Of a stretch of DNA of 21,717 nt, positions 1,865 through 5,542 are shown in pieces. The DNA is from Candidatus Thorarchaeota archaeon (lineage in GTDB: Archaea > Asgardarchaeota > Thorarchaeia > Thorarchaeales > Thorarchaeaceae), in assembly GCA_048882325.1 (NCBI GenBank), contig JBHLRS010000046.1:4068-25784 (forward strand), in the 5' to 3' direction. The notes under the pieces were generated by a model. That model worked only from the letters and a program-made list of their open reading frames with translations. It was not told the DNA's origin and ran no database searches. A program made the position numbers and the translations under genes. How positions within the stretch are numbered: position 1 is the stretch's first letter; the number at the start of each line of letters is the position of its first letter.

Positions 1865-2008
1865 ATGAGACAAGGCCGACAAGAGATCGATTCAAACACT
1901 TGGATTAAAACACTGAGACCGGGTCCATCAGAAACTGACCCAGAGCCTTGGATCATGACATTGCGACCGGGCCCATCAGAAACTGATCCAGAACCTTGGA
2001 ATCACTGA
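1865..2008 (+). CDS. Unannotated 47-aa repeat peptide MRQGRQEIDSNTWIK-TLRPGPSETDPEPWIM-TLRPGPSETDPEPWNH
   Basis: 48-nt period repeat. Copies at 1910-1951 and 1958-1999 differ at 5 positions, all synonymous in this frame. ATG at 1865 is preceded by GTGAT, an SD-like element with spacing similar to the map gene at 6805. Stop is TGA at 2006-2008. Confidence 0.85.
   Translation: MRQGRQEIDSNTWIKTLRPGPSETDPEPWIMTLRPGPSETDPEPWNH
1910..1999 (+). repeat. Direct repeat, 2 x 42 nt at a 48-nt period (coding), with a degenerate third copy at about 1865-1909
   Basis: ACACTGAGACCGGGTCCATCAGAAACTGACCCAGAGCCTTGG versus ACATTGCGACCGGGCCCATCAGAAACTGATCCAGAACCTTGG. Confidence 0.95.
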
Positions 2009-2182: not shown

Positions 2183-4192
2183 ATGGCTTCTTCTCTTACG
2201 CTCTCAGTACGGGTTTGGACAACATTGGAAGAGTTTGAGGTAGGTGTCATCAACTATGCAAGGGATGGTGTTACAATAGAATTAGAATCTGGTGCAATCA
2301 TCTCTGATAAGACCTCTAGCAAAGCAACTTTTGAGGTGAGTAATCAGATTTCCCTCGCCAAGAGTGGCCAAAGTGTCGTTGAGCCAATGAGATCAAGGCT
2401 CGAAATACAATTGAAACCTATCTTGGTTATTCGTCATCCTTATACAAACCTTGGGGGTCAAGTCATTGAGGATATATTTCCACCCTCAACTTCAGGGTTC
2501 TATGGCAGACTGTTGAATGGAGAGAACGAGTCCCTCTTTTTTATTCAGCAGGTGAAGAATAGCAAACAGTTTTGGTTGACAATAACGGATCCACTCACTT
2601 CAAGAATCTTCGAAACACAAGTAATTCAACCATATGAAGCAGAGGCTCTTTCATTAGTAGACGATTATAGACTCAAGCGAATTCAATCGAGCAAAGTGGT
2701 TGAAACGGATGAAGATGTCTTGGATATACTAGACTCTCCAGCTCCATCGTGGCAAGAGCTTTCCAAGCTTGTTGAAGATGTTTCGATTCCTAATTTGCAA
2801 ATGGGAGATACAATGAGGGACACACTTACACACATTGTTCCGACTTCATTTCCAGATCAAATCCGAGAGGAACTAATGGCATTCCTTGCATATGTTATCC
2901 AAAGGAAACTTCCTGAGGAAGACCCTTTGGCATACATGGCAAGGTTCTCTTCAACGGCCATACTAGAAAGTCTTGTGACCGGACACCTGATGCATCTGAT
3001 TGACAAGACAGAGTGGCCATCTTACGTGAAACTCATGATTCTAGCTGCCAGAGGTCAACTTGAAGCCCCGAAAAGAGCTGTTTCGGATTCGATTCTAAGT
3101 GAGCCTTGGCAGGTGTATATCCACAAATGTGTAGAGCTGCTTCCTAGTTGGCTGAATATTGCAGTGGATTCCGTAAAAAGCCTGAATGAATCAGGTCGAG
3201 TGGTATTGGGTCTGCCGACCACGAAGAGTGCCGCTAGAAAGAGTAGGGCTCATTGGAAGAAACGGTTTGCAGAGATTTCCTATGACTTGATGGTAAGAGG
3301 ATACATTGAAGCATCGGCTCTGGGTTTGGTTGAGCTTGTCTATCTTGGTTCAGCCTACAGATGGCCACATAGACATATGAAGTTCATAACTCGACTGGGA
3401 GCTTCAAGTGAGAACCCACCACATCTACAAGTAATGCTCATGCCTCTCAATGCAGCAGAACGGGTCCGAAGAGCGCTTCCAAGTGTTATGAGCGTATCTT
3501 GGTCAGCAAGAACTTTGAATTTGGATTTAATTGATAAACAGTCAAACACTTGGGCAATACCGGTCCAACAGATTGTTGATTCGCTTGAGAAGAAAAGCAC
3601 GATTAGAAAATTGATGAACCGGTATGGGGGGAAAGAAGTTTCTGAAACATATTCAATGTCGTATACTGATTCCAAGATTGCTGATCTCTTCTCTGAAGGT
3701 GTCTTTCTGACATCCTTTGAAGAACCGGACTTCTTTAGTGACTTAGGTTTGGACAAAAGAAAGGTACGCAGACAATTGAAGAATCTAATTAAACGCAAAG
3801 TCATCAATCTGAAATACGAATTGTTTGATCCTAACTTAGCAACCATGGCTTTGATTTTGCAGGGGAAGAGTGAAACCGTCACTTCTGTCGTAGCTGAATT
3901 CCTGAGAAGTACACCCACAACATATGCTAGATTGGATAAGATGGGGGAGAGCGGAGTTTTGCTCTCAAGACTCACGGAGGAATCAGTTCATTCTATCGCT
4001 TCACAATTGACCTCACGGTCAATCGACCATGAAGTGACAATTCGTTGTATGCGACCAACCACATTTCGGGGCTACACATCAAATCTATACCAAAGGCTGT
4101 GGAAACCCAATGGAATATGGGACGATGATGTGAGTGCATTTCTCTCGCAGGCTCGTTCTAAGCGTAAGGAACTGTCAAAGAGTAATGCTTAA
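2183..4192 (+). CDS. Large hypothetical protein (669 aa) with a C-terminal Lrp/AsnC-like winged-helix and RAM-like region
   Basis: Long ORF; ATG 2183 preferred over TTG 2153. DSKIADLFSEG...FSDLGLDKRKVRRQLKNLIKRKVINLKY fits a wHTH, followed by an alternating beta/alpha segment. The N-terminal ~490 aa are not recognised. Confidence 0.6.
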   Translation: MASSLTLSVRVWTTLEEFEVGVINYARDGVTIELESGAIISDKTSSKATFEVSNQISLAKSGQSVVEPMRSRLEIQLKPILVIRHPYTNLGGQVIEDIFPPSTSGFYGRLLNGENESLFFIQQVKNSKQFWLTITDPLTSRIFETQVIQPYEAEALSLVDDYRLKRIQSSKVVETDEDVLDILDSPAPSWQELSKLVEDVSIPNLQMGDTMRDTLTHIVPTSFPDQIREELMAFLAYVIQRKLPEEDPLAYMARFSSTAILESLVTGHLMHLIDKTEWPSYVKLMILAARGQLEAPKRAVSDSILSEPWQVYIHKCVELLPSWLNIAVDSVKSLNESGRVVLGLPTTKSAARKSRAHWKKRFAEISYDLMVRGYIEASALGLVELVYLGSAYRWPHRHMKFITRLGASSENPPHLQVMLMPLNAAERVRRALPSVMSVSWSARTLNLDLIDKQSNTWAIPVQQIVDSLEKKSTIRKLMNRYGGKEVSETYSMSYTDSKIADLFSEGVFLTSFEEPDFFSDLGLDKRKVRRQLKNLIKRKVINLKYELFDPNLATMALILQGKSETVTSVVAEFLRSTPTTYARLDKMGESGVLLSRLTEESVHSIASQLTSRSIDHEVTIRCMRPTTFRGYTSNLYQRLWKPNGIWDDDVSAFLSQARSKRKELSKSNA

Positions 4193-4220
4193 AACCAAAC
4201 GTGGAAAACGAGCGACTTGA

Positions 4221-4334
4221 TGGCGGCCATAGGTTCCCGGGTACACCTGAACTCGGCCGAACTCAGAAGTTAAGCCGGGAATCGTTTGGGCAGATGTGCG
4301 CTGCGCGAGCGCGTGACAGGGCCCAAAGCTGCCA
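4221..4334 (+). rRNA. rrf: 5S rRNA (unlinked to 16S/23S)
   Basis: Helix I TGGCGGC/GCTGCCA, CCATAG, helix II GGTTCCCGG/CCGGGAATC, conserved CCGAACTCAGAAGTTAAGC, helix TTTGGGC/GCCCAAA, about 114 nt. Followed by a pyrimidine tract; TATA-like CTTAAAA at about 4188-4194. Confidence 0.93.
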
Positions 4335-4423
4335 CATTTTCCTTCTTCTTGATTCATGATAATACGAAAATGTAGAGATAGAAGTCATTAAAAGAACAAC
4401 GAACGAGGTCGAGACTGATTTAG

Positions 4424-5542
4424 ATGCAGATAGGCGAACCAAACGAATTCAGCTGGATTATCAATCTAGCATTCTTCGCGTTCATCATGATCTTCAGCCT
4501 CTATGGGGCGAGGTTTCAGATGTGGCAGTGGTTGAAGCAGATTGAAACTGGCTTACATGAGTTAAAGCGGATGTTCATTGAGTCACGTCAGACAGCCATT
4601 GATACATTCAAGGAATTTGGTAAGTCCGAGGAAGAAGTAGCAAAGGACTTGGATCGGTGGATGGATTATTTCACAATCATGCCAGTTGATTTGGATCCAG
4701 CAGGCATCTTGAAGCGATTGGATCACCTTCTAGACGAACGTAGAGACCGCTTCCAAGAATTTGTGGCTGAGTTGGCCCCTGAGTCAGGAGAGAGTACAGT
4801 TCAGAATCTAGAGAACACACTTGAGGTCACTCAGGTACTTGGACTCATCTTCAGGGTGGTCAGACACTTCTACCTTCTAGGGAAGAAGACTGGCAGCCAG
4901 ATCATGATAATGCAGATTCAGATGCAAATGCCCGATCTTCTCAGGCTGGCTAAGGCATACTTTGATGCACTTGGTGCCTTTGCAGACGGTAAACCAATTG
5001 GGGATGGAATCGGACCCTTGGTCATTACTAAATTTGCGAGAGAATATGGTGGTACTTCTGAGAATTACAACCACGAGATCTCACGCGAAGTTGGTTACTA
5101 CAAAGTTGAAGCTGAAGGAAGAACAGTCTATGCTCTCAGGGCCACTGGTCCTGGCGGCACTGTGGGAAAACCAGGCCTTGCAGTGAAAAAGCTGGCAGAT
5201 AAGATTGGTAAGAATGTGACACGAATTATCACGATAGATGCTGCATTAAAACTCGAGGGCGAGGAACTCGGAAGAGTGTCTGAAGGCACCGGAGCAGCTA
5301 TAGGCGACTTGGGACCCGAAAAGCATGCAATGGAACAGACCGCCACCGAACGTGGGATTGGTATAGAGGCCATTGTCATCAAACAGGATGAAGCGGCAGC
5401 TGTTGGTGTTATGGATAAACGAATCCTAGATTCGGTCCCAGAGGTCATCGAGCGAATAAAGACAGCAATCCTCAAGCGCACAAAACCCGGTGATAGCGTG
5501 ATTCTTGCAGGGATTGGAAACACTATGGGAATCGGCTTGTGA
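4424..5542 (+). CDS. DUF1512 family membrane-anchored protein
   Basis: N-terminal TM helix; motifs IMPVDLDPAGIL, PIGDGIGP, GPGGTVGKPG, IITIDAALKLEGE, GIGNTMGI. Confidence 0.85.
   Translation: MQIGEPNEFSWIINLAFFAFIMIFSLYGARFQMWQWLKQIETGLHELKRMFIESRQTAIDTFKEFGKSEEEVAKDLDRWMDYFTIMPVDLDPAGILKRLDHLLDERRDRFQEFVAELAPESGESTVQNLENTLEVTQVLGLIFRVVRHFYLLGKKTGSQIMIMQIQMQMPDLLRLAKAYFDALGAFADGKPIGDGIGPLVITKFAREYGGTSENYNHEISREVGYYKVEAEGRTVYALRATGPGGTVGKPGLAVKKLADKIGKNVTRIITIDAALKLEGEELGRVSEGTGAAIGDLGPEKHAMEQTATERGIGIEAIVIKQDEAAAVGVMDKRILDSVPEVIERIKTAILKRTKPGDSVILAGIGNTMGIGL

Follow-up and report, generated by a model that had tools for sequence, protein, structure and literature searches.

Multi-copy peptide precursors include the multi-core ribosomally synthesized and post-translationally modified peptides (RiPPs), such as cyanobactins and fungal dikaritins, and the repeats of the yeast alpha-factor type. 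In eukaryotes, [DE]P[FW] motifs occur as the DPF/DPW repeats of Eps15 and epsin, which dock on the appendage domains of AP-2. Known ligands of the Lrp/AsnC family are amino acids or tetrapyrroles, not peptides, and NirDL is an Lrp-derived siroheme decarboxylase. Leaderless communication peptides, exemplified by RopB/SIP, are encoded by ultrasmall open reading frames (ORFs) that adjoin the receptor gene and carry no secretion or processing signals (PMC10518010). The PPW motif, described in connection with the upstream conserved coding region of AZIN1, is a polyamine- and eIF5A-dependent pause motif and a leading stall site when EF-P is missing (PMC8705083). Here we describe a 47-residue ORF at positions 1865-2008 (+ strand) of a stretch of 21,717 nucleotides (nt), hereafter the window, on contig C46 of a 3.6-Mb genome (G000); the public relatives of the window's proteins are all labelled Candidatus Thorarchaeota. 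Codon-level evidence marks 1865-2008 as a real, apparently translated micro-gene of an undescribed Thorarchaeota peptide family, whose members lie upstream of a gene of about 670 codons, restricted to Thorarchaeota, that we call dn. We tentatively favour, with somewhat more doubt than confidence, the reading that the micro-gene is independently transcribed and that its peptide would act in trans as a ligand or modulator of the dn protein. The conserved 12-17-codon unit ending in E-P-W, the linkage to dn and the lineage-specific triplication of the unit go beyond the initial annotation of this DNA, which had been made from the sequence alone.

The micro-gene at 1865-2008 and its codon-level conservation

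The ORF extends from the ATG at 1865 to the TGA at 2006-2008, reads MRQGRQEIDSNTWIK-TLRPGPSETDPEPWIM-TLRPGPSETDPEPWNH-stop, and consists of three units of 48 nt; Tandem Repeats Finder reported a period of 48, with 2.1 copies and 85% matches over 1899-2000. Unit 2 (1913-1960, +) reads L-RPGPSETDPEPW-IM-T and unit 3 (1961-2008, +) reads L-RPGPSETDPEPW-NH-stop, the latter retaining the ancestral end E-P-W-N-x-TGA. The two TLRPGPSETDPEPW units differ at five sites in 14 codons (CTG/TTG, AGA/CGA, GGT/GGC, GAC/GAT, GAG/GAA), and all five differences are synonymous. Synonymous changes make up 26% of the possible single-base changes in the repeat stretch, and the probability of obtaining five of five by chance is ~0.0012 for one frame (~0.007 when six frames are allowed for). 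Between units 2 and 3, only 1 of 15 residues differs in the frame of the ORF, compared to 4-7 in the other five frames. Unit 1 (1865-1912, +) is degenerate: its four Pro codons have all been replaced, and the ancestral Shine-Dalgarno (SD) sequence and ATG-AGA-C start context are retained. When placed in register (1865 / 1913 / 1961), it is identical to units 2 and 3 at 27-28 of 45 nt, a value reached by none of 50,000 shuffles; the N-terminal segment of the ORF is a diverged third repeat unit. The observations in the initial annotation, namely a hidden peptide gene at these coordinates with a 48-nt repeat, five synonymous sites and a degenerate first unit, were all reproduced.

The closest relatives (dn 66-70% identical) carry single units, MRPSPQESDPEPWNR (genome G005), MRPGPQESDPEPWNR and MRPSPQPADPEPWSC, each ending at a stop and each 16 codons long including the stop, i.e., 48 nt. 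All three units of the window ORF align codon for codon with the complete micro-gene of these relatives from start to stop, as unit 3 does with the MRPSPQESDPEPWNR-stop of G005. In this alignment, the ancestral ATG is replaced by a Leu codon (CTG/TTG) in units 2 and 3, and the ancestral stop by a Thr codon (ACA) in units 1 and 2. The 47-residue triplicated form was found in the window's genome only. This pattern identifies an ancestral 16-codon gene that was triplicated in frame in a lineage-specific event, yielding one degenerate N-terminal unit and two identical units.

Across the family, the unit has 12-17 codons and follows the form M-[RK]-P-x(5-9)-P-E-P-W-(0-3 aa)-stop, and the commonest version is a single peptide of 12-15 residues without a leader. 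In all 13 genus relatives that keep dn together with the gene preceding the micro-ORF, here called 'up', the spacer holds a micro-ORF of 12-15 codons of the form M-[RTKI]-P-x(5-9)-[P/x]-E-P-W-(0-2 residues)-stop. The functional unit is a short linear motif ending in [E/D]-P-[W/F], mostly P-E-P-W, at most three residues from the C-terminus. The peptides are hydrophilic, proline-rich and acidic, and inspection of their sequences revealed no signal sequence.

Over 71 motif instances, the Trp codon was TGG in every case (71/71), the preceding Pro codon was CCT (34), CCA (16), CCC (12) or CCG (9), the Glu codon was GAA (36) or GAG (25), and the stop codon was TAA (20), TGA (13) or TAG (11). Variation among the instances was confined to third codon positions, and orthologues differed in length by whole codons. 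This codon wobble (four Pro codons, GAA/GAG and three stops) shows that selection acts on the peptide and not on an RNA, as expected of a sequence that is translated and kept for its peptide. Peptide-level conservation, proposed in the initial annotation from one repeat pair, holds over more than 60 loci.

The same data bear on whether the micro-ORF is non-functional: it could have arisen by chance within a decaying tandem repeat, belong to a structured or C/D-box-like RNA, or be a piece of a longer gene. Rfam returned only sub-threshold rows resembling small nucleolar RNAs for positions 1600-2300, and only 5S ribosomal RNA (rRNA) for the whole window at the gathering threshold; the weak nearby rows, the resemblance to a C box of the GTGATGA that precedes some orthologues, and the identity over the last 75 nt of two paralogous ORFs on contigs C11 and C69 of this genome would agree with such an origin. 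However, the three-base periodicity of the wobble, the three stop codons and the codon-sized indels speak against it, as do an ORF that is intact in 63 loci and the sub-threshold scores of all RNA matches in its vicinity. No longer homologous protein was found, and the orthologues showed synonymous bias without frameshifts or stops interrupting the frame. A C/D-box RNA reading of GTGATGA...CTGA was dropped in view of the codon wobble, and a chance-ORF or RNA origin is effectively excluded. The 47-residue peptide had no match in Pfam or NCBIfam. It is absent from a collection of 5.8 billion proteins and has therefore been called by no gene caller; on the contigs examined, gene callers annotated neither this ORF nor its 12-17-codon orthologues. 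Literature searches found no published description of these peptides.

Linkage to dn and repeat arrays in other lineages

A micro-ORF was present upstream of dn on the same strand in 63 of 73 distinct dn loci. These included all A-type dn loci with upstream sequence (29/29), in which the micro-ORF ended ~70-330 nt before the dn start, and 31 of 41 further loci of the dn family; the additional metagenome contigs that we checked all had a micro-ORF, uncalled by gene callers, and contributed three distinct peptides. The window's own genome contains 42 ORFs of up to 60 residues that end in [ED]PW-x(0-2)-stop, which corresponds to ~0.004 expected per 600-nt upstream region. None of 14 loci with 'up' but without dn behind it carried the micro-ORF, which thus accompanies dn and not 'up'. 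Within the taxonomic family of the window, 74 of 85 genomes contain dn itself, against 1 of 314 genomes sampled elsewhere in the phylum. A second dn paralogue (B-type; on C11 in the window's genome), found in most genomes, is associated with a version of the peptide that has 36-45 residues and ends in P-x-E-P-W, and peptides from more distant genera end in G-P-W, T-P-W, E-P-F or D-P-F.

Arrays of units with unrelated sequences arose independently in at least six lineages. Three copies each were found of KPFTPPPEPW, KPFTPPPEPF and APPLSPTIPDDPF, two copies each of VPTGRPPEPW, TPTDKPPEPW, PPTKPPTEPW, PQEPPVEPW, DPKSPPNEPW and FDPGDPDDEPW, and four copies in all of an alternating array of PDLPDPLPW and PETPEPVTPW. 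At ten loci, representing at least six independent expansions, the units within an array encode the same peptide: they differ at 1-8 sites per 27-42 nt, and all of these differences are synonymous. Synonymous divergence is near saturation between the units of locus L092 and reaches up to 8 changes per 30 nt within an array. When orthologous arrays were compared, V/G/R had changed to T/D/K in both units between VPTGRPPEPW x2 and TPTDKPPEPW x2, and Trp to Phe in all three units between KPFTPPPEPW x3 and KPFTPPPEPF x3. Arrays of the Phe type are scattered over the dn tree. Because the units are identical in protein and change in parallel, those of one array behave as equivalent, selected elements that must all fit one species-specific reader. 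Recent homogenisation is ruled out in most arrays by the synonymous divergence; older gene conversion could contribute.

One stand-alone locus (L041, on C69 of the window's genome) has tandem micro-ORFs at 1203-1244 (13 codons, MTRDPNSPPAEPW-stop) and at 1554-1664, the latter being a second copy of the 36-residue paralogue peptide, and they precede a nucleotidyltransferase/DUF4037 gene, not dn. The 36-residue ORFs of C69 and C11 are identical over their last 75 nt and only ~70% identical over the upstream 180 nt, a pattern that points to gene conversion or constraint at the nucleotide level.

The dn protein and the signals around both genes

The dn gene (2183-4192, +) encodes 669 residues, of which the N-terminal half has no recognised fold and residues 322-662 form a double Lrp/AsnC-like region (a winged helix-turn-helix (wHTH) and a RAM module, twice). 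An AlphaFold2 model built from a 44-sequence alignment (predicted local distance difference test (pLDDT) 90; predicted template modelling score 0.86) superposed over residues 322-662 on nearly the whole of NirDL (4ch7; Z 11.1 over 269 residues, with the next unrelated rows at 7.5 or below). Foldseek matched dn to NirDL (E 2e-5), a profile search against PDB sequences returned NirDL alone (E 0.15), and the nearest clusters in the ESM Atlas were archaeal proteins with HTH_AsnC/HTH_24, many of them from Thorarchaeota. In this model, dn is double Lrp/AsnC-like in its C-terminal half. By sequence, dn had no Pfam match at E <= 0.01, with only TFIIE_alpha and HTH_36 at E 0.09-0.18 and with PF13404, PF13412 and PF01037 unmatched, and neither dn nor 'up' matched Pfam, NCBIfam or PADLOC. 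Because the Pfam and NCBIfam models are unmatched, dn is Lrp-like in fold and not a sequence-level member of Lrp/AsnC. Its 131 database relatives are named 'hypothetical protein' and, once, 'MarR family regulator'. The dn protein, which probably binds DNA, evolves fast, with 40-47% identity within the genus against ~75% for 'up'.

The start of dn is the ATG at 2183, since G005 has a stop in the equivalent upstream stretch and starts at the aligned ATG; the listed TTG start at 2153 (stretch 2153-2182) is probably not used. An in-frame TGA flagged in some matches to dn was set aside as being located upstream of the true start, outside the gene. Ser occupies dn residue 613 in all three Phe-type lineages, but also in the window's Trp-type dn, and ~20% of random triples give such a column; covariation of peptide and dn at this column was rejected as not significant.

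Identical cores in arrays of 2-4, short linkers and strict conservation of each core are also what a precursor of a modified or exported peptide would display, be it a multi-core RiPP or a secreted signal that is cut after each ...P-W. Under this explanation, the degenerate or longer N-terminal part could act as a leader, the N-terminal half of dn or a gene elsewhere would be the maturase, and the winged helix of dn would be the recognition element. Folded alone (pLDDT 89), dn residues 1-368 matched no solved fold clearly (best Z 4.7; no Foldseek match at E <= 0.001), leaving room for an enzyme; the lack of a match does not make that fold new. However, scans of dn, 'up' and the neighbouring DUF1512 gene turned up no family of Pfam, NCBIfam or PADLOC and no domain of the radical-SAM, YcaO, ATP-grasp, P450, peptidase or transporter kinds, and the commonest peptide is leaderless, a single unit, hydrophilic and free of a signal sequence on inspection. 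We consider a modified or exported product quite unlikely. The initial annotation thus stood in its observations and in part of its interpretation: peptide conservation and the degenerate unit were upheld, and its remark that no ATP-grasp or other maturase is adjacent agreed with our scan of the immediate neighbours ('up', dn, the DUF1512 neighbour and the paralogue dn), whereas nothing beyond the repeated cores supports its graspetide or cross-linked RiPP reading.

The 'up' gene (1101-1679, +) encodes 192 residues without a family match and is genomically linked to dn in both paralogous modules. Its own paralogue lies at G000:C11:86201-86668, and in most genomes of the genus each 'up' adjoins the corresponding dn paralogue or lies 8-10 kb from it, so the module may have 'up' as a third component or may derive from an old segmental duplication. 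This linkage is relevant to the explanation that the peptide is real and has a partner other than dn, which would then be a local transcription factor of the micro-gene, with [E/D]P[W/F] docking elsewhere in the manner of the eukaryotic DPF/DPW motifs. Regulators commonly adjoin the genes they control, a promoter-like box and a terminator belong to the peptide gene itself, a stand-alone copy of the peptide exists, and the role of partner could fall to 'up'. With a generic cellular partner, one would expect a more constant peptide sequence, whereas the variable part of the peptide and dn both evolve fast and stay linked throughout the family, in both paralogues. We regard a partner other than dn as unlikely.

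Upstream of the peptide ATG by ~90 nt is a T-rich TATA-like box, GAATTTTATCC (1774-1784, +), a putative promoter of the micro-gene; an alignment of 18 orthologous upstream regions has a T-rich block at the matching place, and the box resembles those upstream of transfer RNA (tRNA) genes in this genome. An SD-like GTGAT (1856-1860, +) lies 4 nt before the peptide ATG. Among orthologues, GTGA is invariant and GTGAT or GGTGA is usual, 4-9 nt before the micro-ORF ATG; in this genome, SD-like motifs precede 24% of long ORFs, compared to an internal background of 7.6%, and peak at -11 to -14, a spacing matched by the micro-ORF. Behind the micro-ORF is a terminator-like element (2043-2081, +; RNAfold -13.4 kcal/mol), composed of the hairpin GTCCCA-CTGA-TGGGAC (2049-2064) and a T5 run (2077-2081). 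Of 56 loci examined, 35 have a hairpin and a T5-T9 run behind the micro-ORF, with differing stem sequences, and in 34 of these 35 the T-run starts 47-89 nt past the stop (one outlier at 183 nt). The gap between stop and hairpin ranges from 1 to 57 nt. The dn gene then starts ~80-100 nt beyond the T-run on the same strand, which in the window is ~175 nt after the peptide ORF.

Before dn is a second box, ACAAGTCTAAAATG (2127-2140, +), 51 nt from its ATG, a putative promoter with B recognition element and TATA box. Of 28 tabulated A-type loci, 15 have CAAyTCTAAAATGG at -50 to -53 relative to the dn ATG, and a 16th (L053, CTTAAAAT) has it at -43; B-type dn has a corresponding box resembling GATACAWATAG. 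The boxes of both paralogue groups resemble those found 30-35 nt before the tRNA genes of this genome (AAnTCTTTAAA). An SD-like AGGCG (2170-2174, +) lies 8 nt before the dn ATG, where orthologues have AGGGGA or AGGTG (AGGGG/AGGTG usual). Because a terminator-like hairpin and T-run followed by conserved TATA-like boxes precede dn, the peptide gene and dn are, on sequence grounds, probably separate transcription units.

This layout, a 12-17-codon ORF with a hairpin and T5-T9 run 47-89 nt later and dn a further ~80-100 nt on, also suits a cis-acting leader or arrest peptide, in which a ribosome stalled at ...P-E-P-W would sense the supply of Pro and Trp or the activity of aIF5A and govern termination at the hairpin and T-run and read-through into dn. 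The PP(P)-x-E-P-W sequence of many units, the precedent of the PPW pause (PMC8705083) and the loss of all four prolines from the degenerate unit 1 are consistent with such a role. Several features do not fit. In both paralogue groups conserved TATA-like boxes stand between terminator and dn, a copy of the paralogue peptide precedes an unrelated nucleotidyltransferase gene, and Pro-Pro is absent from most single-unit A-type peptides. Replacements that occur in parallel throughout an array, Trp to Phe among them, would be unexpected if the reader were the conserved ribosome tunnel. The stop-to-hairpin gap varies between 1 and 57 nt, too widely for a ribosome positioned on the stop to reach the hairpin in every case. 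A cis-acting leader seems to us rather unlikely.

A perfect 8-bp inverted repeat, TCACTGAT-AAGTA-ATCAGTGA (1839-1859, +), would sequester the SD sequence of the peptide gene (pairing probability 0.99; 2 of 60 shuffles attain this value). In a set of 18 orthologues sequestration was not enriched (mean pairing 0.64, compared to 0.63 in shuffles), and an SD-sequestering hairpin, strong in the window, was rejected as a family feature. Past dn, 27 nt beyond its stop, lies a 5S rRNA gene (4219-4337, +; Rfam 66.5 bits), followed by a DUF1512 gene (4424-5542), and the order from dn to DUF1512 is kept on metagenome contigs. Aragorn found 13 tRNA genes only in this 93%-complete genome, one of them a tRNA-SeC on C26; many of its tRNAs probably carry introns or escaped assembly.

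A possible trans-acting peptide and its comparison with known systems

If the micro-gene product does act on dn, the peptide would be made as a free, disordered, acidic and Pro-rich chain in the cytoplasm, and its [E/D]P[W/F] end would dock on dn and alter the activity of dn. The repeat units would be interchangeable in docking on one dn pocket, and arrays of 2-4 units would either bind multivalently or be cut into identical peptides, raising valency or dose. The overall logic would be that of a cassette of a peptide and a cytoplasmic receptor. Among the alternatives raised in the initial annotation, a multivalent docking motif fits the data best, and a ribosome-pausing leader is still a rival.

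Several points count against a trans-acting peptide of dn. Contact between peptide and dn and expression of the peptide are both presumed, and the promoter and terminator assignments are read from sequence. A short ORF, then a hairpin with a T-run, then a gene is classical attenuator geometry as well, and dn might merely regulate the peptide gene while the peptide acts elsewhere. DNA binding by dn is not assured, since NirDL, the closest solved structure to its C-terminal half, is an enzyme. With the patterns used, 10 of the 73 dn loci, mostly from distant genera, had no matching micro-ORF. In locus L084, two of the three units differ by 1 nt only, and old gene conversion could account for part of the parallel change among repeats.

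The peptide family with its conserved Lrp-like partner is new and unannotated, and its mechanism is directly testable. Gene callers missed the peptide gene, although few short sequences in these genomes are under stronger selection and its conservation spans a whole Asgard family; tandem repeat units that diverge at synonymous sites only can serve to find hidden micro-genes of this kind. Lrp-type regulators are otherwise known to sense amino acids. A concrete pair of a 12-15-residue peptide and one soluble protein lets one ask whether the closest archaeal relatives of eukaryotes use peptide ligands, or linear-motif docking, on regulators of this type, and the natural variants (Trp and Phe arrays; 1 to 4 units) are ready-made tests of specificity and valency. 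It is possible, if doubtful, that the pair belongs to family-wide Thorarchaeota peptide signalling or regulation, in which free-standing micro-peptides built of eukaryote-like [E/D]P[W/F] motifs would be read by a dedicated Lrp-fold receptor, with codes that co-diversify between species and with multivalent arrays. Such a signalling system, in our opinion a conjecture with the balance against it, would have no described archaeal counterpart. If it is real and the peptides leave the cell, communication between cells by peptides would be described for the first time in the archaeal relatives of eukaryotes.

When compared to described systems, the peptides resemble the motifs of Eps15 and epsin in their repeated acidic-Pro-aromatic motifs, their disordered proline-rich chain and the interchangeability of Trp and Phe. 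In contrast, the motif here forms a free-standing micro-peptide and not a part of a large scaffold, and nothing resembling an appendage domain was identified as a partner; chance may account for the resemblance. With trpL-type attenuators, TnaC and the AZIN1 PPW pause, the locus shares an ORF of 12-17 codons with a Pro/Trp end, a hairpin with a T-run and a same-strand gene behind, and it differs in the promoter-like box before dn, in the stand-alone copy and in repeats that co-vary (W to F). Tandem identical cores, short linkers and strict purifying selection on each core are shared with multi-copy peptide precursors, but the immediate neighbours include no recognisable maturase, protease or transporter and the commonest form is one leaderless unit. 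As for Lrp/AsnC proteins and the NirDL/AhbAB group, residues 322-662 of dn superpose on the two fused wHTH + RAM modules of NirDL, whereas family sequence models leave dn unmatched and ~320 additional N-terminal residues have no assigned fold.

The RRNPPA cassettes of Bacillota and their phages (Rap/Phr, PlcR/PapR, Rgg/SHP, ComR/ComS and AimR/AimP) differ in that dn is double Lrp/AsnC-like with an unassigned N-terminal half and not a TPR protein, in that the Thorarchaeota peptides are acidic and proline-rich and not hydrophobic, and in that their units are often repeated and the system is archaeal. The sole RRNPPA row in the fold search with dn was Rgg2 (Z 3.8 over 65 residues), within noise, and the module is not a member of this group. 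Nevertheless, these cassettes, especially the leaderless communication peptides, are the closest in logic: a tiny, usually unannotated ORF adjoins a cytoplasmic regulator-type gene, a pairing seen here in 63 of 73 dn loci, the information lies at the C-terminal end of the peptide, the leaderless peptides too are devoid of secretion and processing signals, and peptide and receptor diversify fast between close relatives.

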